Part shown: in pieces, positions 18,012 through 53,902 of the stretch | Position numbering within the stretch: the stretch's first letter is position 1 | How the letters are laid out: each line of letters opens with the position of its first letter | Origin: Myxococcota bacterium | GTDB lineage: Bacteria; Myxococcota_A; UBA9160; UBA6930 | Direction of reading: 5' to 3' | DNA: 64,000 nt | Assembly (NCBI GenBank): GCA_965223415.1 | Contig: OZ245002.1 | Location: 2,944,001-3,008,000 of the forward strand | The notes under the pieces: model-generated | What the model was told of the DNA's origin: nothing | Databases searched by the model: none | The model's input: the letters and a program-made list of their open reading frames with translations, nothing else | Position numbers and translations under genes: made by a program

Positions 18012-19536
18012 CCCTGATCCGGCATTGCGAGGTGTAGGGAAAGCCCGGAATTGAAAGTGGCTCCGTCGGTGTGCTTGATGGAAGTGCCAACCACCATCAT
18101 GCCTCCGAGGAGCCACATTCGTGAAGCTAAGCAGACACCGGATTCGAGCCCGCGTCAAGGGCGAATTGTCGATCGCCTTCACGGATGAGGCGCTGACGAG
18201 CTACGGCGGGCTGGAGCTGTTCCGGCGCTTCTTCGACCGCTTTTGGGCAGAGCGCCTGAAAGCGGCCTTTGCGGATCGGGCGTTCGACTCGGACTACGGA
18301 TCCTTCCGCTGCATGCTGGTGGTGGTGGGGATGCTGCTGCTGGGAGGGAGCCGTCTCTCGCATGTCCGGGTGCTCGATCGGGATCCGTTGTTTCGGCGGT
18401 TCGTCCGATTGCAGCGGCTTCCGGACGAGCGGACCCTGGCGAGGAACCTGAAGGAGCTGACGTCGGGCTACCGCGATCGTCTGAACGAACTGCTGCGGGA
18501 CATGGCCTATGGAACCCACACAGGGCTCGGCTTGGAGCGGGCCACGATCGAGCTGGACGGCACCGTGCTTCGGACGGGCGAGTACGTGGACGGCGCCGAG
18601 CGCGGCTTCAACCCACATCACCCGAAGGACCCGTCCTACTACCCGCTGACGGCGCACCTGGCGCAGACGAGCCAGCTGCTCGGCGTATGGAACCGGCCGG
18701 GCAATGTGAACGATGCGGTGGGCGCTGCGGAGAAGCTGGCCTTTCTCCTGGGCGACGCGAAGCGGCGCCTCGATCGGGTCCCGATCGAGGTGCGGCTCGA
18801 TGGCGCCTTCTTCCAGAAGGCCGTTCTCGAGGTTCTCACGGCCTCTCGCGTGGAGTACGCCCTCAAGGTCCCCATGTGGCGCTGGCTCGGCGTGCGTGAG
18901 AAGATCGCCGCCCGGAAGCGTTGGCACCGCGTCAACGCGAGCGTCGACGCCTTCTCCGTCGTCCACCGGATCCCACAGTGGAAGCGCTGCGAGCGGATCG
19001 TGGTGTTCCGCAAGAAGGTCTCCGGGCGAAGCGCGAAGAACTTCCAGCTCGACCTCTTCACCCCGGACGATGGCCACTACGAGTACTCGATGGTCGCGAC
19101 GAACAAGCGGACCAGCGAGGCCGCCGTCTGGGCCTTCATGGCCGGACGCGGCGGCCACGAGAAGACGCTGGCCGAGCTCAAACAGCACCTGGCGTTCGCC
19201 ACCATCCCGACCCAGGACTGGGACGCCAACAGCAACTGGCAGCTGCTCAGTGCCCTGACCCACAACCTGGTGCGGGACTTCCAAGCCACGCTTGGCCTGC
19301 CAGAGCGACCCAACGGCCGAAAGCGGACCGCCCGGCTCCGCTTCCCCTCGCTCCGCACGCTCCGCTTCGAGCTGATCCAGCTCCCTGGCCGCATCGCTCG
19401 GCCTGCCGGACGCGCTTCGCTCCGAATCGCCGCGTCCTCGCGCAGCCGCTCCACCATCCGGGCCGCCGAGACCGCGCTCGCCGCGTGAGCCCGCCAGACC
19501 TACGCTCGGATCCGTGATCTCAATGCCGGATCAGGG
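18012..19536 (+). mobile_element. IS1380-family insertion sequence, 1525 bp
   Basis: Perfect 16-bp IRs CCCTGATCCGGCATTG (18012-18027, 19521-19536); CTAG direct repeats at 18008-18011 and 19537-19540. Confidence 0.93.
18121..19488 (+). CDS. IS1380-family DDE transposase
   Basis: LTSYGGL, IELDGT, SYYPL, RPGN, RLDGAF, RGGHE..LAELK. Confidence 0.92.
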   Translation: MKLSRHRIRARVKGELSIAFTDEALTSYGGLELFRRFFDRFWAERLKAAFADRAFDSDYGSFRCMLVVVGMLLLGGSRLSHVRVLDRDPLFRRFVRLQRLPDERTLARNLKELTSGYRDRLNELLRDMAYGTHTGLGLERATIELDGTVLRTGEYVDGAERGFNPHHPKDPSYYPLTAHLAQTSQLLGVWNRPGNVNDAVGAAEKLAFLLGDAKRRLDRVPIEVRLDGAFFQKAVLEVLTASRVEYALKVPMWRWLGVREKIAARKRWHRVNASVDAFSVVHRIPQWKRCERIVVFRKKVSGRSAKNFQLDLFTPDDGHYEYSMVATNKRTSEAAVWAFMAGRGGHEKTLAELKQHLAFATIPTQDWDANSNWQLLSALTHNLVRDFQATLGLPERPNGRKRTARLRFPSLRTLRFELIQLPGRIARPAGRASLRIAASSRSRSTIRAAETALAA

Positions 19537-32058: not shown

Positions 32059-32143
32059 GGGCGGTTCTCCTCGTCCGCGAGTTTGCGCCGTCGTCGCGGA
32101 CGCCGCCAATCCGGTGGGACGTGGGGAGTGATAGAGTCGCGAC

Positions 32144-34372
32144 ATGCCCTCCGCCCCGGCTCCCGGCGTCGAGCGCGTCCCCTCCATCTGCCGCTTCTGT
32201 CACGCGAACTGCGGAATCCTCGTGGACCTGGAGCAGGGGCGGCCCGTCCGCGTCCAGGGCGACCCGGACAACCCCGCCTACCGGGGGTTCACCTGCGCCA
32301 AGGGCCGCAGGCTCCCGGAGCAGCACGCCCATCCGGATCGGCTGCTGCACAGCCAGAAGCGGAAGGAGGGCGGCGGCTTCGCGCCGATCCCGAGCGCGAC
32401 CGCCATGGACGAGGTGGCCCAGCGCGTCTCCGCCCTGATGGCCGAGCACGGGCCGCGGTCGGTCGCGCTCTACGTGGGCACCTACGCGGGGCCCCACCCG
32501 GCGTCGATCCCCTTCGCGGTGAGCTGGCTGCTGGCAGCGGGCTCGCGCATGGTGTTCACACCCTCGGCGATCGACCAGCCGGGCAAGCACATCGCCAACG
32601 CGATCCACGGCCGCTGGCTCGGCGGCTCCTACGTATTCGACGAGGCGGACGCCTGGATGCTGGTCGGGAACAACCCGCTCATCTCCATGTCCGGCGGCAT
32701 CCCGCCGTCGAACCCGGGCCGCCGGCTGCGCGTGGCTCGCGAACGGGGCTTGAAGCTCGTCGTCGTCGATCCGCGCCGGACCGAGGTGGCTCGCTTCGCG
32801 GATCTCCACCTCCAGCCCCGTCCCGGCGAGGACCCGGCGCTGCTCGCGGCCATGCTCCACGTCGTCTACCGGGAGGGCTGGGTGGACGAGGCCTTCGTGG
32901 CCGCGAACGTGGACGGCGCGGAAGCGCTGGCCGAGGCGGTGCATCCGTTCTCCCCCGAAGTCGCCGCGGCGCGGGCCGACGTGCCGGCGTTGGCCATCGA
33001 GGAGGCGGCGCGGATCTTCGCCACCGCCCGCCGCTGCTGCGGTGTGGCGGGCACCGGACCCAACATGGCTCCCCATGGCAACGTCACCGAGTACCTGCTG
33101 CTCGCCCTGAACAGCGTCTGTGGGCACTGGCGGCGGGAGGGCGAGACGGTGCCCAACCCGGGCGCGCTGCTGCCCCGCGCCACGCCGAAGGCCCAGGCCC
33201 TGGCGCCCCGCGCGGGCTGGGGCCGGGGCGAGTCCCTGCGCTCGCGTCCCCTCGGCAGCTCGGCCGCCGGGCTGCCGACCGCGGCCCTGGCCGACGAGAT
33301 CCTCTACGAGGGCGAGGACCGGATTCGTGCACTGCTCTGCGTGGGCAGCAACCCGGTGGCGGCGTGGCCGGACCAGCGCAAGACCCTCGAGGCCATGGAC
33401 CGGCTCGACCTCCTCGTATGCCTCGACCCGAAGATGGCGGCGACGGCCCGCCGCGCCCACTACGTGATCGCACCCCGGCTCAGCCTGGAGGTTCCGGGCC
33501 TCTCCGTCTCGAGCGAGGCCATCGAGCAGACCTACGTGGGCATCGGCTATCCGGAGCCCTACGCCCAGTACACGCCGGCGCGAGCCGTGCCGCCCGCCGG
33601 CTCCGACGTGATCGAGGAGTGGGAGTTCTTCTACGGGCTCGCCCAGCGGATGGGGCTCGAGCTGAACCTCTTCCCGCTCCGGCCCGAGACCGGCGTGCTG
33701 CGGGACCGGCGCGAGGCCGTGCCCGTCGACATGGAGAAGATGCCCAGCACCGACGAGGTGCTCGGCCTGCTGATGAACGGATCCCGGGTTCCGCTGGAGG
33801 AAGTCCGCCGCCATCCCCACGGCCGGATCTTCGACGACGAGACGGTCCCGGTCGCGCCGCCGGATCCGGAGGCTCGCGACCGGCTCGACGTCGCCAACGA
33901 GACGATGCTGGCGGAGCTGGCCGGGATCCGGAACGAAGCGCCCTACGGCGCCGAGCCGGCACGACCCTTCCGCCTCGTCTCACGTCGCATGCCCAACGTC
34001 TACAACTCCTCGGGCCGCGACATCGAGGCCCTGCAGAAGGGCCGTCCCTACAATCCGGCCTACCTCCACCCGGACGACCTGGCGATGCTCGGGGTCGTCC
34101 CGGGCGAGACGATCGAGATCGCGTCGGAGCGCGCCTCGATCCTGGGCGTGGCCGCGCAGGCTCCGGAGCTGCGCCGGGGCCTGGTCTCGATGGCCCACGG
34201 CTTCGGCGACGCGCCCGAGCGGGATGGCGAGCTCCACCGGCTGGGGAGCAACACGGGCCGTCTCGTCAGCAACGAGGAGCATTTCGATCCCCACTCCGGC
34301 ATCCCGCGCATGAGCGCGATCCCGGTGGCGGTGCGGAGCGCACCGGCGCCGCGGCCCGTGCCGTCTACCTGA
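32144..34372 (+). CDS. Molybdopterin-dependent oxidoreductase with N-terminal 4Fe-4S
   Basis: CRFCHANC..C.KG; VDPRRTE; GSNP; LHPDD C-terminal domain. Confidence 0.9.
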   Translation: MPSAPAPGVERVPSICRFCHANCGILVDLEQGRPVRVQGDPDNPAYRGFTCAKGRRLPEQHAHPDRLLHSQKRKEGGGFAPIPSATAMDEVAQRVSALMAEHGPRSVALYVGTYAGPHPASIPFAVSWLLAAGSRMVFTPSAIDQPGKHIANAIHGRWLGGSYVFDEADAWMLVGNNPLISMSGGIPPSNPGRRLRVARERGLKLVVVDPRRTEVARFADLHLQPRPGEDPALLAAMLHVVYREGWVDEAFVAANVDGAEALAEAVHPFSPEVAAARADVPALAIEEAARIFATARRCCGVAGTGPNMAPHGNVTEYLLLALNSVCGHWRREGETVPNPGALLPRATPKAQALAPRAGWGRGESLRSRPLGSSAAGLPTAALADEILYEGEDRIRALLCVGSNPVAAWPDQRKTLEAMDRLDLLVCLDPKMAATARRAHYVIAPRLSLEVPGLSVSSEAIEQTYVGIGYPEPYAQYTPARAVPPAGSDVIEEWEFFYGLAQRMGLELNLFPLRPETGVLRDRREAVPVDMEKMPSTDEVLGLLMNGSRVPLEEVRRHPHGRIFDDETVPVAPPDPEARDRLDVANETMLAELAGIRNEAPYGAEPARPFRLVSRRMPNVYNSSGRDIEALQKGRPYNPAYLHPDDLAMLGVVPGETIEIASERASILGVAAQAPELRRGLVSMAHGFGDAPERDGELHRLGSNTGRLVSNEEHFDPHSGIPRMSAIPVAVRSAPAPRPVPST

Positions 34373-36422
34373 GCGAGCGCGGAACCGGGAGCCGGGAGCG
34401 ACGTCTCCGGGACGTCCGAGCGGCGAGGAGGGGGAGGAGCACCAGGAGCTCGGCGCCGAGGCCGCAAGCGGTCTGGGTGGTTTGCTCGCTGTCGCGCCAG
34501 GGCCGGCCCACGCACTGGGGGTCGGGGCCGTTCGGGTCTGCGCCTCCGGCGCCGAGGATCGACTCGCCTCCGTCGAAGTCCGTGCCGAGGGCGCCGTCGT
34601 TGTCGAGGCCGTCCTGGCACTGGGGATCCTCCAACGGCGAGGCGGCGCTGCCGCAGCCCGGGTCAACCGGGAAGTCGATGAGCCCGTCGCCGTCGTCGTC
34701 GACGAGGTTGCTGCAGGCGGTGCCGAGAACGGGGGAGAGGAGCGCACCGCCCAAGGCGATCAGGTTCCCGACGTCTTCGCTGCCCAGCGCGAGGCCGTTG
34801 CCGAGCATCTCGTTGGTGATCACGTCGGCGCGACCGTCGCCGTCCAGGTCCCCCGCTGCCGCGCTGTAGCAGAGCACGTCGCCGACGTCGGCGCCGACGG
34901 TGCCGTGGGCGCCGATCACCTCGGTCGCGCGCACGCCGGGCGGAAGCGGCTGGGCCAGGTCGACCTGCGGCGGCCACGGCACGGAAGCGCCGAAGAAGAC
35001 GTGGAGAATGCCCGCCTCGTTCCGTCCCAGGGCGGCGCCGTGGGGCGAGCTGAAGCCCAGGTCGTCGATCCCATCGCCGTCGAAGTCCCCGTGCAGCGCC
35101 GTGTCTCCCGTGATCGCGCCGCCCTGGAAGCCGGGGAAGTCCGTGGTCACCGCGCCCGGTGGCGGGCTGTCGCGATCGAAGACGAGGCCGCGCAGACTCG
35201 CCGCGCCGTAGAACACGTGGGCGGAGCCGGAGGCCGCGCCGGCTCCCAAGTCGGCGACGATGTCGGCCACGAAGAGGTCCGCCGCGCCGTCGTCGTCGTA
35301 GTCGAGGCCGCCCAGCATCTCCTCGCCGAAGGCCACGTTGCCCACACCCCCGTCGATGATCGTCCGGGCGCCCGGCGAGCTGTCGATCTCGAAGGCGAGG
35401 CCCGCCGTCCACGGGTTGCCTGCAAAGTTGTCGTCCCAGGCGACGTAGAGGGTGCCCTCGGCAGTCCCGCCCGTGCCGTGAGCTTGGCTCGCCGGGGCTC
35501 CCTCGGCGGGCAGTGTCGCGCCGGAGCGGTTGAGCGCCGCCGCCGCCATCACCTCGGCCTGGCCGTTGCCGTCGAGATCCGCGACGCCCACCGTCGCGCC
35601 GAAGTGGAGGTGGCTCGTGCCCGGCGGAGGACCGACCCGAGCCACGTGGCCCGCGATGGACGTGCTGCCGAAGTTGGCCAGATCGATCGTGCCGCCCGCC
35701 GCCAGGCGCGAGCCGCCGCGCACGACGTACACCGCACCGCGGTGGACGCCGCTACCCGCGTCCTCCTGATCGGCACCGATCGCGAGATCGGCCACGCCGT
35801 CGCCGGTCACGTCGCCGGTGCGCATCCAGATGCCGAGCCGACCGTACTCCTCGCCGCCGACGATCGTCGTGAGCGTGAGCGCCGCCGGGGGCGCCCGCAG
35901 ATCGACGGCGGTGAGGCCGGCGGCGTGGGTCGCGAGCTCCGGGCCTCCGACCAGGATCGAGAGGGCCCCGGCTCCGGTCCGCCCCGCCTCCGGCGTGTGG
36001 TTCTGGCGGGCGATGAGCAGGTCGCCGACCCCGTCGCCGGTCACGTCGTCCATCCAGATCTCGCTGCCGGCGTTCTCCTGCACGCCGTCGCCGAGGATGC
36101 GCAGGATGCGCGCCTGGGCGACGGCCGTGTCGAGGGTACCCGCGAGGGTTCCGTCGCCGAACACCAGGTACACCTCGCCGGCGGAGCTTCGCCCGAGCGG
36201 GCTCGCCTGCATGGCGGCGAAGGCCAGGTCCAGCGCGCCGTCGCCGTCGCAATCGTGCCCCCCGGCGACGGGAACTCCCTCCGCACCGGTGCCGGTCGAG
36301 CCGTGGACCCGCAGCAGGCCCGGACCAGTAGTGGACACGGTGGCCAGATCCAGGGTGTGGAGCTGGGCGGAGGCGGAGCTCGGAAGGGCGATGAGCAGCA
36401 GGAGCATGGCGAGTCGCAGCAT
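34365..36422 (-). CDS. FG-GAP/integrin-alpha beta-propeller surface protein with Cys/Asp stalk and CGLGxEL C-terminal anchor
   Basis: Signal peptide; seven DxxGDG/DxDGDG-like repeats with G.VY.V.G-type strands; ends CGLGAEL-TM-RRRR. Confidence 0.85.
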   Translation of the reverse strand: MLRLAMLLLLIALPSSASAQLHTLDLATVSTTGPGLLRVHGSTGTGAEGVPVAGGHDCDGDGALDLAFAAMQASPLGRSSAGEVYLVFGDGTLAGTLDTAVAQARILRILGDGVQENAGSEIWMDDVTGDGVGDLLIARQNHTPEAGRTGAGALSILVGGPELATHAAGLTAVDLRAPPAALTLTTIVGGEEYGRLGIWMRTGDVTGDGVADLAIGADQEDAGSGVHRGAVYVVRGGSRLAAGGTIDLANFGSTSIAGHVARVGPPPGTSHLHFGATVGVADLDGNGQAEVMAAAALNRSGATLPAEGAPASQAHGTGGTAEGTLYVAWDDNFAGNPWTAGLAFEIDSSPGARTIIDGGVGNVAFGEEMLGGLDYDDDGAADLFVADIVADLGAGAASGSAHVFYGAASLRGLVFDRDSPPPGAVTTDFPGFQGGAITGDTALHGDFDGDGIDDLGFSSPHGAALGRNEAGILHVFFGASVPWPPQVDLAQPLPPGVRATEVIGAHGTVGADVGDVLCYSAAAGDLDGDGRADVITNEMLGNGLALGSEDVGNLIALGGALLSPVLGTACSNLVDDDGDGLIDFPVDPGCGSAASPLEDPQCQDGLDNDGALGTDFDGGESILGAGGADPNGPDPQCVGRPWRDSEQTTQTACGLGAELLVLLPLLAARTSRRRRSRLPVPRSLR

Positions 36423-36444: not shown

Positions 36445-37209
36445 CTAGCCGCCGGCCCCTCCCATCGACCCGATCGCGGCGAACACCTCCTCGGGTCGCG
36501 CGCGCTTGCGGTAGGTGTCGGCCTGGTAGGTCCAGCGAACGATGCCCTCGCCGTCGACGAGCACGGTGGTGGGGAAAGCGATGTCCTTGCCCATGTTGCC
36601 GCCGCGGTGTCGGATGCCGAGGGCGTCCAGCAGCTCGCCCTCGGCATCGGCGAGGAAGGTGAAGCTCACCGAGAGCCGATCGCGCAGGCGACGCGAGACC
36701 TCGGGCGGATCGACGCTCACCGCGATCAGCTCCACGCCCTTGGAGCGGATCTCCTCGTAGTAGCGTTCGAGCTGGACCAGCTCGGTGCGGCAGAAGGGTC
36801 ACCAGTCGCCGCGGTAGAAGATGTAGAGCTCGGGCGGGCGCGGTGCGCCGGCCTCGCGGGTGCGAAGCTGCTCGTCCTGGTCCAGGAGCGCGTAGGAAGG
36901 GAAGGGAGCCCCTACGTCGATGGCCAGGGAGTGGGGCGGGAGCCAGCTGAGCTGCAGGACGTAGAAGGAGACCGGGCCGACCAGGGCGAGCTCGAGGCCG
37001 ACGACGGGCCAGTGGAACCAGCGGCGGCGGCGGCGGAAGAGGGCGAGCAGGCCCAGGGCCCCACCCAGCCAGAGCGCGCCGAGCACGATCCACGGGATCT
37101 CCGCGTGGATGAGCTGCTCGAAGCCCGGCACCAGCCGATCCGACTCGCCGAGGGCGACCAGCACCCAGCCGAAGGTTCCGAAGACGAGCAGGGCCGAGAT
37201 CCAGAGCAC
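36445..37209 (-). CDS. Membrane-anchored AhpC/TSA peroxiredoxin-like selenoprotein (Sec at TGA 36799-36801), 254 aa
   Basis: ORFs 36799-37209 and 36445-36735 share a frame and join through a single TGA: FYRGDW-U-PFCRTELVQL...LIAVSVD...FLAD...PTTVLVD.EGIVRW. Confidence 0.9.
36768..36784 (-). promoter_or_regulatory. Bacterial SECIS hairpin
   Basis: CGAGCUG-GUC-CAGCUCG perfect 7-bp stem 14 nt after UGA; loop starts with G. Confidence 0.8.
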
Positions 37210-37244
37210 GGCGTGAGGGTAGCGCCCCGGTGTAGCCTCCCGCG

Positions 37245-38960
37245 ATGACCCGAGCCGTCCTCTCCGTCGCCGCCTTCCTATCGCTCCTGCTGCCCTGCGC
37301 GAGCCTCGCCGCGGAGCCCGCCACGATCTTCACGGCGCGGAGGATCCACACCCTGGAGCCCGCGCTGCCGGTCGCGACGGCGGTCGCGGTGGCCGAGGGC
37401 CGGATCGTCGCGGTCGGCAGCCTCGAATCGCTCGAGCCCTGGGTGCGCGAGCGCGGCGCCACGATCGATCGCCGCCTCGAGGACAAGGTGCTCCTGCCGG
37501 GCTTCATCGATCCCCACGTGCACCCCTCGCTCCCCGCGATCGTGACCCAGTTCCCGTTCCTGGCGCCCGACGACTGGTCCCTGCCGACCGGCGAGTTCCC
37601 CGGCGCGCGAAACCCCGAAGCCTTCCGCGCCCGCTTGCAGGAGCTGGTCGCGGCCCACGACGACGCGCGGGTCCCCTTCATCGCCTGGGGCTACCACCCG
37701 CTGTGGCACGGCGACGTCTACCGCGCGGAGCTCGACGCACTCTTCCCCGATACGCCGGTGATGCTGTGGCACCGCTCCTTCCACGAGCTCGTCGCCAACA
37801 GCCCGGCGCTCGCGATGCTCGGCGTGACCGAGCAGGACGTCGCCGGTCACCACGAAATCGTCTGGGAGAAGGGCCACTTCTTCGAGACCGGCGCCATGCA
37901 GCTCGTGCCGAAGATGGCCTTCCTGTTCGACCCCGCCCGTTACGGCCAGGGGATGCAGAACTTCCTGGCGATGGCCCACCGGGGCGGCGTGACGACGGCC
38001 CTCGACATGGGCACGGGCATCTTCGGCAACCCGGAGCAGGAGATCGCCCTCGTGCGCCAGGTGACGGAGCAGAGCCGCGCGCCGACGCGCCTCATCCTGA
38101 CACCGATCATCTCGGACTTCCTGGCGCGAGGTGTCTCCATTCCCGACGCGCTGACCGCCATCGACCGGTGGCGCGAGGGAAACACCCCGCGCGTCCGCAT
38201 CGACCGCCGCTTCAAGCTCATGATGGACGGCGCGATCTTCAGCGGCCTCTCCCGTTTCGGGTTCCCCGGCTACCTGGACGGCCACGAGGGCGTCTGGCTC
38301 GCGCCCCTCGAGGTGACCCGGAAGTGGGCCCAGGCCTTCTGGAACGAGGGCTACCAGCTCCACGCCCACACCAACGGTGACGAGAGCGCCGCGGCGATGA
38401 TCGACCTGCTGCGCGGCCTCCAGGAGGCGAAGCCCCGGCCGGACCACCGCTTCACCCTCGAGCACTTCGCCTACACCACCGAGGATCAGAACCGCCAGCT
38501 GAAGGCGCTCGGCGCCGTCGTCTCCGCCAATCCCTACTACCAGTACATCCTGAGCGATCTCTACAGCGAACGCTGGCTCGGCCCGGATCGCGCCCGCCAG
38601 ATGGTGCGGCTCGGCTCCCTCGAACGGCTCGGCGTCCCCTTCGCCCTCCACTCGGATTGCCCGATGGCGCCCCTCGAGCCCCTGACCCTCGCCTGGGCGG
38701 CGGCGAACCGGGTGACGATCAACGGCAACGAGAACGCCGCCTCCGAGCGCGTCAGCCTGGAAGCGGCGATGCGCGCGATCACGATCGACGCCGCCTGGGT
38801 GATGGGCTGGGAGGACGAGATCGGGTCGATTCGCGCCGGCAAGCGGGCGGACTTCACGGTGCTGGGAGCGGATCCCTTCGAGGTAGGGGCGAAGGGGCTC
38901 CGGGAGATCCCGGTCTGGGGGACGGTGTTCGAGGGGGAGGTGGCGCCCGGCGGCGACTGA
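37245..38960 (+). CDS. Secreted amidohydrolase (Amidohydro_3, YtcJ-like)
   Basis: PGFIDPHVH, KLMMDG, HTNGD, LEH, HSDCP, GSIRAGKRADF. Confidence 0.9.
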   Translation: MTRAVLSVAAFLSLLLPCASLAAEPATIFTARRIHTLEPALPVATAVAVAEGRIVAVGSLESLEPWVRERGATIDRRLEDKVLLPGFIDPHVHPSLPAIVTQFPFLAPDDWSLPTGEFPGARNPEAFRARLQELVAAHDDARVPFIAWGYHPLWHGDVYRAELDALFPDTPVMLWHRSFHELVANSPALAMLGVTEQDVAGHHEIVWEKGHFFETGAMQLVPKMAFLFDPARYGQGMQNFLAMAHRGGVTTALDMGTGIFGNPEQEIALVRQVTEQSRAPTRLILTPIISDFLARGVSIPDALTAIDRWREGNTPRVRIDRRFKLMMDGAIFSGLSRFGFPGYLDGHEGVWLAPLEVTRKWAQAFWNEGYQLHAHTNGDESAAAMIDLLRGLQEAKPRPDHRFTLEHFAYTTEDQNRQLKALGAVVSANPYYQYILSDLYSERWLGPDRARQMVRLGSLERLGVPFALHSDCPMAPLEPLTLAWAAANRVTINGNENAASERVSLEAAMRAITIDAAWVMGWEDEIGSIRAGKRADFTVLGADPFEVGAKGLREIPVWGTVFEGEVAPGGD

Positions 38961-42478: not shown

Positions 42479-43324
42479 GTGGCCGAAGCCGCTCATCAGC
42501 CCGTTCCGTTGGAGTCGCTCCGGCGCGCCCTTCGCCCTCTCTCCTTGCTGGCGAGCCCGGTCTCCTCCGGGCTCGAGCGGGCTCCGAAGGCCGGGCCGGT
42601 GCTCTTCGTCGGCAACCACACGATCTACGGAATGCTCGACGTTCCGCTCCTGGGCCTGGAGATCCATGAGCGGACCGGCCGGCCGGTGCGCGGACTGGCC
42701 GACCACCTGCACTTCTCCCTGCCGGGCTGGCGCGACGCCCTCGTCGCCCTGGGCGGCGTCCGCGGCACCCGCGAGAACTGCGCGCGGCTCTTCCGGGAAG
42801 GGGAGCAGGTGATGGTCTTCCCCGGCGGCGGCCGCGAGGTGGTGCGGCGCCGGGGCGAGGCCTACCAGCTCATCTGGAAGCAGCGCATCGGCTTCGCCCG
42901 GCTGGCCATCCAGCACGGGGTGCCGATCGTGCCCTTCGCCTCGGTCGGCGTGGACGACATGTTCGAGATCCTGGTCGACGCGAACGACGTCATGGCCTCG
43001 CCGGTCGGCACGCTCCTCGAGCGGCTCGGCGTCACGGACGAGCCCTGGTTCCGAGGCGGTGAGCTCATTCCCTCCCTTTCGCGAGGCAAGGGCATCGCCG
43101 GGCTGCCTCGGGCGGAGCGCATGTACTTCCACTTCGCCGACCCGATCGACACCAGCCGTTTCGCCGGTCTCCACGAGGATCGCGACGCCTGCTTCGCCCT
43201 GCGCAAGGAGGTGCAGCTCGCGATCGAGCAGGGCGTCGGCGCGCTGATGGAGAAGCGCGATCGCGATCCCGAGCCCTACCCGGTCCAGCGCCTGCTGCGA
43301 GGCCTGGCCTCGCGGCTCGGCTGA
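42479..43324 (+). CDS. Lysophospholipid/diacylglycerol acyltransferase family protein
   Basis: FVGNH....D, FPGGGRE, GFARLA...VPIVP; AAGGAGG RBS. Confidence 0.88.
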   Translation: MAEAAHQPVPLESLRRALRPLSLLASPVSSGLERAPKAGPVLFVGNHTIYGMLDVPLLGLEIHERTGRPVRGLADHLHFSLPGWRDALVALGGVRGTRENCARLFREGEQVMVFPGGGREVVRRRGEAYQLIWKQRIGFARLAIQHGVPIVPFASVGVDDMFEILVDANDVMASPVGTLLERLGVTDEPWFRGGELIPSLSRGKGIAGLPRAERMYFHFADPIDTSRFAGLHEDRDACFALRKEVQLAIEQGVGALMEKRDRDPEPYPVQRLLRGLASRLG

Positions 43325-52342: not shown

Positions 52343-53902
52343 GTGAGCGCGCGCCCTCCCGGCTACTACGAGCAATCGCTCTGGGCCTATACCGACGCCT
52401 GCAGCTACGCCCCAGGCGAGACCGTGACGTTCTTCGTCTCGAGCCCCACTCCGGAGGTGAGCTGCAGCGTCTCGCGGGTGGGTGCGGACGAGGCGGAGGT
52501 CCACGCGCTGGCCGGCATCCGGGCGGGTCATCACGAGACCCCGGGCGACGCCTACCGGGAGGGCTGCGGTTGGCCGGACACCTTCGCCCTCCGCGTGGGA
52601 AGCGATTGGCCGAGCGGGTACTACCGGGTGCGGCTGCGCGCGGGCGAGCTCTCCGCCGAGCACTTCTTCGTGGTGCGATCGGCACGGCCCGGCGCGCAGG
52701 CGCGCCACGTGCTCGTTCTCGCCACCAACACCTACCAGGCCTACAACGGCTGGGGTGGCCTGAACCTCTACGGCAACGACGCCAGCTTCGCCGACAGTCC
52801 CGACCAGCTCGTGCACCGGCCCACGCCCGCGCCGGTGGTCGCGTGGGATCGCCCCTACTCGCGCTGCCTCGTGGCCTCCCCGGTACCGACGCGCATCCCC
52901 ACCTCCGGTCGGCGCGACATGGGCGCGCCCCTCGGGCTGCCCGACGCCACGGCCGAGCTGGTGGCCGCCGGCGCTTCGATCTGGGACATGCCGGCGGGCT
53001 TCCTCCACAAGTGGGAGCAGCAGTTCGTAGCGTGGGCCGAGCGAGCCGGCGTCGCCCTCGACTACCTCGCCCAGAGCGACCTGGACGCCGACCCGAACGC
53101 CCTCGATCCCTACTCTTCCTACCTGAGCGTCGGCCATGACGAGTACTGGACCTGGGAGGAGCGCGACGTCGTCGAGGCCTTCGTCGATGCGGGAGGCAGC
53201 GCGTCGTTCTTCTCGGGCAATACCTGCTTCTGGCAGGTGCGCTTCGAACGCGACGGCCACGCGATGGCGGGCTACAAGTTCACGGCGCCCCAGGACGATC
53301 CGGTGCTCGGGACCGACCGCCAGCACCTCGTGACGAGCCTGTGGTCGGACCCCCTGATCGGCCGGCCGGAGACGCGGATGACCGGCGTAAGCTTCGCCCG
53401 CGCGGGCTACGCGCGGGCCGGCTACGCCCTCTCCCGTGGGATCGCCGGCTACACCGTGTACCGTCCGGAGCACTGGTGCCTGGAGGGAACGGATCTCTTC
53501 TACGGAGACGTGATCGGCGACGATTCGGCGCTCGTCGCCTACGAGACCGACGGCTGCACCTTCCGCTTCGAGGAGGGGCGACCCGTCCCCACGGGTGAGG
53601 ACGGCGCGCCGACGGACTTCGAGATCGTCGGCATCGCCCCCGCGACCCTCGGCGAGCCGGATCCCCCGCCCGGCGAAGGACTGCTCGGCCGGGACGACGC
53701 CGAGTTCGTCGCCTCCCGTCTCTTCGGCGGCGACACCGAGCGGGCACTGCGAGGCCACGCGACCTTCGGGAGCTTCCGGCGCGGCCAGGGCGAGGTGTTC
53801 ACCGCAGGCACCACCGAGTGGGCGTGGGCGCTGGCAGCGGGCGATCCCTTCATCGACCGGATCACGCGCAACGTCCTGGAGCGCGCTCAAGCAGGCCGCT
53901 GA
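52343..53902 (+). CDS. N,N-dimethylformamidase large-subunit-like protein
   Basis: TNTYQAYN.WGG.NLY, VGHDEYWT, FSGNTCFWQVR, YETDG. Confidence 0.82.
   Translation: MSARPPGYYEQSLWAYTDACSYAPGETVTFFVSSPTPEVSCSVSRVGADEAEVHALAGIRAGHHETPGDAYREGCGWPDTFALRVGSDWPSGYYRVRLRAGELSAEHFFVVRSARPGAQARHVLVLATNTYQAYNGWGGLNLYGNDASFADSPDQLVHRPTPAPVVAWDRPYSRCLVASPVPTRIPTSGRRDMGAPLGLPDATAELVAAGASIWDMPAGFLHKWEQQFVAWAERAGVALDYLAQSDLDADPNALDPYSSYLSVGHDEYWTWEERDVVEAFVDAGGSASFFSGNTCFWQVRFERDGHAMAGYKFTAPQDDPVLGTDRQHLVTSLWSDPLIGRPETRMTGVSFARAGYARAGYALSRGIAGYTVYRPEHWCLEGTDLFYGDVIGDDSALVAYETDGCTFRFEEGRPVPTGEDGAPTDFEIVGIAPATLGEPDPPPGEGLLGRDDAEFVASRLFGGDTERALRGHATFGSFRRGQGEVFTAGTTEWAWALAAGDPFIDRITRNVLERAQAGR

Follow-up and report, generated by a model that had tools for sequence, protein, structure and literature searches.

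A predicted membrane-anchored, Prx-like UxxC selenoprotein encoded across an in-frame TGA in a Myxococcota genome

The window analyzed here is a 64-kb stretch of Myxococcota DNA (71% GC), and the subject of this study is a gene on its minus strand that gene calling with genetic code table 11 breaks into two pieces. The open reading frames (ORFs) 36799..37209 (136 amino acids, aa) and 36445..36735/36798 (96 aa) lie in one frame, and only a single TGA at 36799..36801 stands between them, as the first-pass annotation of this stretch had noted. If this TGA is read as selenocysteine (Sec, U), the minus-strand frame 37209-36445 yields 254 residues with U137 as the sole departure from table 11. The frame opens with a GTG (37209-37207) that aligns with the ATG/GTG starts of homologues, and its 254 codons are followed by a TAG stop (36447-36445). 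The residues around the predicted Sec codon are ...LYIFYRGDW-U-PFC-RTELVQLERYY, which places U137 in position 1 of a UxxC motif and Cys140 (TGC, 36790..36792) in position 2. That the TGA falls on the first cysteine position of an AhpC/TSA-type motif had been claimed before and is borne out by the W-U-P-F-C that is read and by the match to the Pfam family PF00578. The GC content at third codon positions is 0.86 upstream and 0.92 downstream of the TGA, which is a coding composition on both sides, and the next possible start lies 22 codons 3' of the TGA, so that initiation there would drop the CxxC motif.

Elsewhere in the window, TGA is the terminator of 20/37 other coding-like ORFs, and the code is therefore standard in this DNA. 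The Pfam domains are complete in the window's other TGA-ending ORFs, and this is the sole place in the window where an in-frame TGA within one gene is flanked by a coding signal on either side. Two other candidates for TGA read-through, both on the plus strand, were rejected: 43322-43324 marks the junction of an acyltransferase and a TetR gene with distinct domains, and 53900-53902 lies between a DMFA2-like and an acyl-CoA dehydrogenase region, which are separate genes with distinct domains.

Homologues were obtained from one scan of a species-representative genome collection, which gave 29 loci. At the column of U137, 27 of them have TGA and two (L019 and L020) have TGC or TGT, in agreement with the earlier expectation that homologues would carry either Sec or Cys at this position. 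The TGA-bearing loci span several phyla; in all 27 the codon directly after FYRGDW is TGA, and the frame runs on into the conserved C-terminal half. In the 26 Sec forms of an alignment that omits one locus (A3, without L018), pairwise amino-acid identity averages 0.58 past the TGA and 0.38 before it, and Cys140 is invariant. The ratio of nonsynonymous to synonymous substitution rates downstream of the TGA is 0.05-0.43 (11 pairs). Judging from these comparisons, the region downstream of the TGA is translated and under purifying selection. The closest homologue of the window gene comes from a Myxococcota metagenome-assembled genome (MAG; L001, 68% identity), and in the tree the window sequence falls among Myxococcota sequences. 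The omitted L018 (811-2100, on a MAG contig labelled Chloroflexota) is near-identical to L010 up to about residue 203 and then continues into an unrelated alpha/beta-hydrolase-like sequence, which is due to either a deletion or a chimeric assembly.

With the read-through product as query, a protein search returned 75 matches, which include 16 full-length Cys forms of 237-244 aa with W-C-P-F-C (P0003-P0018) and seven proteins of 142-168 aa that stop exactly at ...FYRGDW; none of the 75 is a named member of the Prx-like selenoprotein class described below. An NCBI record from a Myxococcota MAG is a 151-aa “hypothetical protein” that ends with ...FYRGDW, so that the suspicion that standard annotation misses this gene was justified, and the clusters matched by the table-11 N-terminal ORF are all “hypothetical proteins” of 118-145 aa. 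In a set of 1.84 billion cluster representatives, a profile built from the N-terminal part (A5) had 948 matches at E<=1e-3, of which 99 reached E<=1e-10. Of the best 150 of these 948, 129 have ..G.W as their exact C-terminus (130 if P0123, with CYRGDW at its end, is counted), six are Cys forms and 14 are fragments or ambiguous. As there are 948 matches and most of the best 150 end at ..G.W, the family is, on the evidence of these predicted proteins, large, mostly of the Sec form, and systematically cut short by gene callers.

The second feature that accompanies the TGA is a hairpin in the downstream coding sequence. The perfect stem-loop C-GAGCUG / GUC / CAGCUC-G, which the first-pass annotation had proposed as a selenocysteine insertion sequence (SECIS) element with its loop 21 nt past the UGA, was located at 36784-36768 on the minus strand, where the same nucleotides encode (T)ELVQL(E). 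It has seven perfect pairs, begins 14 nt past the UGA, and has a GUC loop that starts 21 nt past the UGA and opens with G-U; its folding energy is -10.6 kcal/mol. In PMC13188914, the model of the bacterial SECIS (bSECIS) has a loop of 3-9 nt on an upper stem of 4-16 bp, asks for a G within the first two positions of the loop and for 16-37 nt from the UGA to the loop, and limits the minimum free energy (MFE) to at most -7.5 kcal/mol. The window hairpin lies within all of these published limits (3-nt loop, 7 bp, 21 nt, -10.6 kcal/mol), and the fit to the bacterial SECIS pattern that had been claimed for it is now strengthened by constraint at synonymous sites. In the 28 Sec forms, i.e. the window gene and the 27 TGA loci, the hairpin is present without exception, with the loop beginning 20-21 nt past the UGA and a G within the first two loop positions. 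The hairpin energies lie between -5.4 and -12.5 kcal/mol; the 22-nt hairpin alone reaches -7.5 kcal/mol or less in 23/28 Sec forms, weaker hairpins being those of L021, L022, L025 (borderline), L026 and L027 with -5.4 to -7.8 kcal/mol, and the MFE of 42 nt is -7.5 kcal/mol or less in 28/28.

In the hairpin alignment 95% of the cells are paired. At the outer pair both sides vary, with CG in 17 sequences, GC in 4 and UA in 1, and 4 sequences are unpaired there. For the neighbouring pair, 22 sequences have GC and 4 have GU; four pairs are invariant and hence uninformative on covariation. The synonymous-site identity at codons +6 to +10 is 0.84 versus 0.47 elsewhere, which is the top value among 123 five-codon windows, and in the Sec forms the Glu of the hairpin is always GAG, the Gln always CAG, and the second Leu CUC or CUU and never CUG. 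The Cys forms L019 and L020 encode ELSAMN/ELSVMN at this site, where the hairpin cannot form, and the full-length Cys forms of the protein search likewise lack the Q-L. Judged by this codon usage, the hairpin is an RNA-level feature. The comparative evidence from the TGA, the hairpin and the synonymous sites is far beyond chance as far as aligned sequences can tell, and with the TGA conserved at its codon, the downstream frame selected and the hairpin retained in Sec forms, the early suggestion of a hidden selenoprotein gene at this position gains strong support.

The redox domain of the predicted protein comprises residues 99-226 (36532..36915, minus strand), and its fold extends to about residue 252. 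It is recognized by Pfam as PF00578 (AhpC-TSA, 2.1e-22) and PF08534 (Redoxin, 6.6e-19). AlphaFold2, based on a 28-sequence alignment, gives a model with a predicted local distance difference test score of 92.2 and a predicted template modelling (TM) score of 0.87, in which a thioredoxin-fold domain follows three helices, and in which the break at U137 falls inside the fold, just ahead of the active-site helix. In a Foldseek comparison with the PDB, Bcp4, BcpB and AhpE are on top (E 3e-13 to 1e-10; TM-scores normalized to target length 0.84-0.87). In the alignment to Bcp of A. pernix (2cx3), FFPAAFSPVC stands over FYRGDWUPFC, so that the Ser at position -3 is replaced by Sec137, the peroxidatic Cys corresponds to Cys140, the motif Pro is replaced by Arg, and the catalytic Arg122 is replaced by Pro213 (36571..36573), which is invariant. 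The window protein therefore does not have the PxxxT/SxxC motif and the catalytic Arg that serve as the criterion for PrxQ/BCP-type peroxiredoxins. In the alignment to ResA, U-P-F-C stands over C-P-H-C, and Cys140 is at the position of the second Cys of ResA. No curated NCBIfam family reached its cut-off with the window protein: ResA is the best match with 45.9 versus a cut-off of 170, and TlpA (26 versus 230), DsbE (19.6 versus 123), SelL_rel_redox (NF040769, 37.7 versus 120) and PrxU (23.5 versus 270) are likewise below.

A selenoprotein class that fits this combination has been in print since 2004-2005, with a first naming in EMBO Reports in 2004 according to later tables. In PMC13188914, which also names a “Redoxin family protein” (HEU0032618.1), it is listed as “Prx-like thiol:disulfide oxidoreductase, PF00578, UxxC” and as “predicted with high confidence”. 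The Sargasso Sea study (PMC1088965) calls it “Prx-like protein”, the Global Ocean Sampling study (PMC2398784) has it under “Prx-like 1/3”, and a 2006 Genome Biology paper (PMC1794560) lists it as well. The statement that Prx-like UxxC selenoproteins already exist is therefore correct as far as these listings go. The window protein has what the class is recognized by, namely PF00578 with UxxC rather than TxxU, here as W-U-P-F-C. By the published class definition, it is to be placed in the known “Prx-like thiol:disulfide oxidoreductase” selenoproteins, because a PrxQ/AhpE fold is combined with a thioredoxin-type UxxC and with Pro in place of the catalytic Arg. The description as “peroxiredoxin-like” holds for the fold, which Foldseek places with PrxQ, Bcp and AhpE, but not for the active site: two of three peroxiredoxin catalytic residues are replaced, and usual peroxidase chemistry is therefore not implied.

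In front of the redox domain lie three hydrophobic segments. Transmembrane (TM) helix 1 (residues 2-20, 37150..37206) has a hydropathy peak of 2.17, TM helix 2 (residues 40-58, 37036..37092) comes directly after a conserved motif of loop 1, GFEQLIHAxIPW, with the invariant Pro39, and TM helix 3 (residues 66-87, 36949..37014) has Glu72 in its middle, where most window-clade sequences have E or Q. The AlphaFold2 helices have the same limits, 2-20, 40-58 and 66-87, and three hydrophobic segments are found in 28/28 aligned proteins; the proposed fusion to a three-helix domain has thus stood up, and the N-terminal anchor is real on the evidence of the model and the hydropathy. Between helices 2 and 3 is the RRRRR loop (residues 59-63, 37021..37035), which hydropathy and the model locate exactly where the first-pass annotation had put it, and which is predicted to be cytoplasmic. 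In the window protein there are five Lys and Arg residues in loop 2 versus one in loop 1 plus the 15 residues past helix 3; loop 1 is net acidic (1 K/R, 4 D/E), and the 15 residues past helix 3 are without K/R. In the window clade, the Lys plus Arg count of N-terminal tail and loop 2 (2-5) exceeds that of loop 1 and the post-helix segment (1-3) in 13/18 sequences, and the two counts are equal in the remaining 5/18. By the positive-inside rule, which is the only basis for this inference, the N-terminus and loop 2 would be cytoplasmic and the Sec domain would be outside.

Some relatives carry the same module in front of a kinase. In three loci from Acidobacteriota/Marinacidobacterales (L024:5809-8058, L027:5914-8016 and L028:5755-7884), the three helices and the UxxC domain with its TGA are continued in frame by GAF-like, HisKA and HATPase_c domains, and no further hydrophobic segment lies before the kinase domains. 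Two more members of the group, L026 and L029, are both broken, and the kinase-fused proteins form one clade (support 100/99). Upon read-through, L024, L027 and L028 would encode proteins of 700-750 aa that are candidates for sensor histidine kinases with selenocysteine. “A histidine kinase” is mentioned among unverified bSECISearch candidates, with no details in the accessible text of PMC8318568, and no paper was found that names selenocysteine-containing sensor histidine kinases in its title or abstract. In the kinase-fused proteins, Lys and Arg number 0-2 in loop 2 as against 5-9 in loop 1 and the post-helix segment together, which is the reverse of the window clade, and for four kinase-fused relatives the positive-inside rule correctly puts the C-terminal side in the cytoplasm. 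As a kinase core has to lie in the cytoplasm and exactly these proteins show the opposite charge bias, they serve as an internal control that supports the use of the positive-inside rule, and the family may, by this charge rule, occur in two membrane orientations. More tentatively, one may think of a large and nearly unannotated selenoprotein family that is inserted in two opposite orientations, as an extracytoplasmic Sec-dependent oxidoreductase, to which the window gene would belong, and as a cytoplasm-facing form that would have become the kinase input domain in Acidobacteriota, the kinases then being redox sensors based on selenocysteine.

Taken together, we consider it likely, with a probability of about 0.8, that 37209-36445 is a single gene for a 254-residue, Sec-containing, Prx-like UxxC protein that is anchored to the membrane by three helices and would have its Sec domain at the outer face. 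In such a protein, the UGA at 36801-36799 would be decoded as selenocysteine, with the downstream hairpin in the coding sequence acting as a bacterial SECIS that is bound by SelB, as its geometry and conservation suggest. The charges would place the Sec domain on the outer side of the inner membrane, as in the case of ResA, TlpA or CcmG. Sec137 would most likely be the attacking nucleophile on an oxidized substrate, which could be a disulfide or a sulfenic acid, or perhaps a peroxide. From what is known of the class, a selenenylsulfide between Sec137 and Cys140 would be formed next, which then would be reduced by a partner.

Several observations weigh against parts of this reading. With respect to the hairpin, perfect hairpins of at least 7 bp with bSECIS geometry follow 23/966 TGA triplets of the window (2.4%), a 71-nt stretch is not unusually stable in comparison with shuffled sequences (z -0.85; 42/200 shuffles at least as stable), and no Rfam family, be it a SECIS or tRNA-Sec, reached its gathering score in the window. 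The hairpin by itself is weak evidence, and as it is statistically ordinary when taken alone, the selenoprotein case rests on the comparison with relatives. Even there, the support by covariation is limited to one pair, as 5/7 pairs are invariant or variable on one side only and also encode the conserved E-L..Q-L. With respect to decoding, genes for selA, selB, selD and tRNA-Sec were found neither within the 64-kb window nor in the flanks of the 29 loci. With respect to orientation, the charge pattern in 122 short representatives is mixed (41 with the C-terminal domain out, 35 with it in, 39 ambiguous, and 7 with weak helices), the kinase-fused relatives must hold the homologous Prx-like domain inside the cell, a conserved CcdA/DsbD-type neighbour that could hint at an electron donor was not found in the locus flanks, and the top structural matches are peroxiredoxins rather than TlpA or ResA.

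What alternatives exist for the decoding of the TGA as Sec? The TGA could be a true stop, the locus then being a pseudogene or two separate small genes, and the two pieces that result from table-11 calling, together with the short “hypothetical proteins” predicted for homologues in public data, would agree with this. A chance stop is nonetheless hardly compatible with a TGA at the same codon in 27/29 loci across phyla and with purifying selection downstream of it; moreover, the break would lie within the fold, ahead of the active-site helix, and a separate downstream gene would have its first start 22 codons on, with the CxxC motif lost. We therefore regard a true stop as extremely improbable. 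Scarcely better is the idea that, owing to near-cognate decoding or an altered code, the UGA yields an ordinary residue (Cys, Trp or Gly) and no selenium is involved. The lack of visible Sec machinery in the window would suit such a mechanism, but the code is standard, with TGA as the stop of 20/37 other coding-like ORFs, and plain read-through would leave a purpose neither for a hairpin that is kept at a fixed distance and conserved only in TGA forms, nor for the constraint on its synonymous sites.

More weight has to be given to alternatives that retain the selenoprotein and differ in its placement or chemistry. In one of them, the Sec domain would be cytoplasmic (N-out/C-in), would find its substrates in the cytoplasm or at the membrane surface, and would be recycled by thioredoxin. 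L024, L027 and L028, which have no TM segment between the Prx-like and the GAF/HisKA/HATPase domains, point in this direction, as do the homology of the three-helix region throughout the family, the nearness of the fold to cytoplasmic PrxQ and AhpE, and the lack of CcdA or DsbD genes nearby. In the window protein, however, this topology would require five consecutive Arg residues in a loop 2 of 7-9 residues to cross the membrane, loop 1 is net acidic, the segment past helix 3 is free of K/R, and the opposite charge pattern in the kinase-fused clade suggests a real difference between the clades. A cytoplasmic Sec domain thus appears unlikely for the window protein. The claim that the Sec site lies outside the cytoplasm may hold for the window protein in so far as the charge rule (K+R 5 versus 1) applies; it does not extend to the kinase-fused relatives, which need a cytoplasmic domain. 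In the other alternative, the protein would be a membrane-surface selenium peroxidase in which peroxide oxidizes Sec137 and Cys140 resolves, and not a protein-disulfide reductase. Sec reacts fast with peroxides, the fold is that of PrxQ/AhpE with a match to AhpC-TSA in Pfam, and Cys140 occupies the position of a peroxidatic Cys. This chemistry is possible but doubtful, as the Pro of PxxxT/SxxC and the peroxiredoxin Arg are replaced by Arg and Pro213, the motif is of the thioredoxin type WCxxC as in ResA, and the top NCBIfam match, below its cut-off, is ResA.

Some observations concern selenium use in the genomes around this family. YqeC is a marker of the selenium-cofactor trait, and five related loci of Myxococcota have a YqeC (PF19842) gene 0.1-1.4 kb upstream, encoded on the other strand (L003:5007-5882 and L012:4658-5539, with homologous ORFs in L005, L009 and L011); via this trait, the YqeC neighbours would be an indirect hint of selenium use in those five genomes. 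No YqeC gene was seen among 36 window ORFs that were scanned. ARAGORN found no tRNA in the window, and its sole call in the 29 loci is a 92-nt “tRNA-Gly (acc)” at L028:9820-9911, where Rfam gives no tRNA at gathering score, and which is probably a false call; an Rfam scan of nine loci gave no SECIS family or tRNA-Sec at gathering score. Anaeromyxobacter belongs to the Myxococcota. For Anaeromyxobacter dehalogenans, 11 selenoproteins are listed in PMC1794560, and Sec use therefore occurs in Deltaproteobacteria as grouped in that paper.

The genes next to the selenoprotein gene differ between the loci. When 997 ORFs from the flanks were clustered all against all, and when a filtered set of 119 was scanned with Pfam, no neighbour emerged that is shared family-wide; shared neighbours (alkyl sulfatase, YqeC) occur only among closely related Myxococcota loci, and genes for cytochrome c maturation, Sco, CcdA/DsbD or sel functions are not found near the window gene. 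On the same strand, the gene of a secreted FG-GAP repeat protein (34368-36422, minus) begins 22 nt past the selenoprotein stop and is probably co-transcribed with the selenoprotein gene. The N-terminus of the FG-GAP protein is signal-like (MLRLAMLLLLIALPSSASA), and its C-terminus is Cys-Gly-rich, followed by a hydrophobic stretch and RRRR, which resembles a sorting tail of the MYXO-CTERM type; the NCBIfam match is weak and concerns only the repeat. On the other side, a divergent amidohydrolase gene (37245-38960, plus) starts with an ATG at 37245, 35 bp (37210-37244) from the selenoprotein GTG, and a GGAGG 27 nt upstream of the GTG is too distant for a usual ribosome-binding site. Farther away, a DDE transposase gene (18079-19488, plus; PF13701, PF01609) lies between the genes of a sigma-54 response regulator and a 7TM histidine kinase. 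A molybdopterin oxidoreductase gene (32135-34372, plus) is distantly related to formate dehydrogenase alpha (151 bits versus a cut-off of 666); it was rejected as a Sec form, as it contains no in-frame TGA.

Compared with known systems, the enzyme class as such is not new. The published Prx-like UxxC selenoproteins share with the window protein the AhpC/TSA-type domain, the thioredoxin-like UxxC in place of the TxxU of Sec-peroxiredoxins, the existence of Cys-containing homologues, and a SECIS inside the coding sequence. The difference is the three-helix N-terminal domain, the class (type WP_010940744.1) being compared here by its description only. The word “membrane” is absent from the accessible text of PMC2398784, PMC1088965 and PMC1794560, and the words “transmembrane” and “histidine kinase” are absent from that of PMC13188914; none of these texts relates “membrane” or “transmembrane” to this family. 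Judged by these published descriptions of the class, the three-helix anchor thus appears to be undescribed, and the kinase-fused relatives are the more surprising part of the finding, as they would link selenium with two-component signalling. Public predictions stop at the Sec codon in one NCBI record and in at least 129 cluster representatives, and annotations and selenoprotein counts therefore miss a membrane redox protein that is widespread in Myxococcota, Binatia, Acidobacteriota and other phyla. The family also lends itself to clean tests of bacterial SECIS models, as its hairpin is short, keeps a fixed distance and covers a conserved peptide.

Among the peroxiredoxins, PrxQ/BCP and AhpE (3hjp, 5epf, 1xxu, 2cx3) are the best structural matches, and Cys140 is at the position of their peroxidatic Cys. 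They are, however, soluble and have no membrane domain, their Thr or Ser at position -3 is Sec in the window protein, and their motif Pro and catalytic Arg are Arg and Pro213, respectively. Selenocysteine can work outside the cytoplasm, as is evident from periplasmic selenoproteins such as the alpha subunit of formate dehydrogenase-N and the [NiFeSe] hydrogenase. These are metal-cofactor enzymes that are exported after folding, whereas the window protein would be inserted co-translationally and would carry a thiol-type redox site. With ResA, TlpA, CcmG (DsbE) and StoA, the window protein shares the W-C-x-x-C motif with Sec in place of the first Cys, the Pro opposite the active site, the anchor N-terminal to the redox domain and, as predicted, the position at the outer face. 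Those proteins have a single anchor helix and Cys rather than Sec; moreover, the scores of the window protein are far under the cut-offs of ResA, TlpA and CcmG, and Foldseek puts peroxiredoxins first. If the predicted orientation is true, the window protein would represent a selenium-dependent counterpart of the ResA/TlpA-type oxidoreductases at the outer face of the membrane, and would bear on the envelope redox chemistry of poorly cultured phyla.

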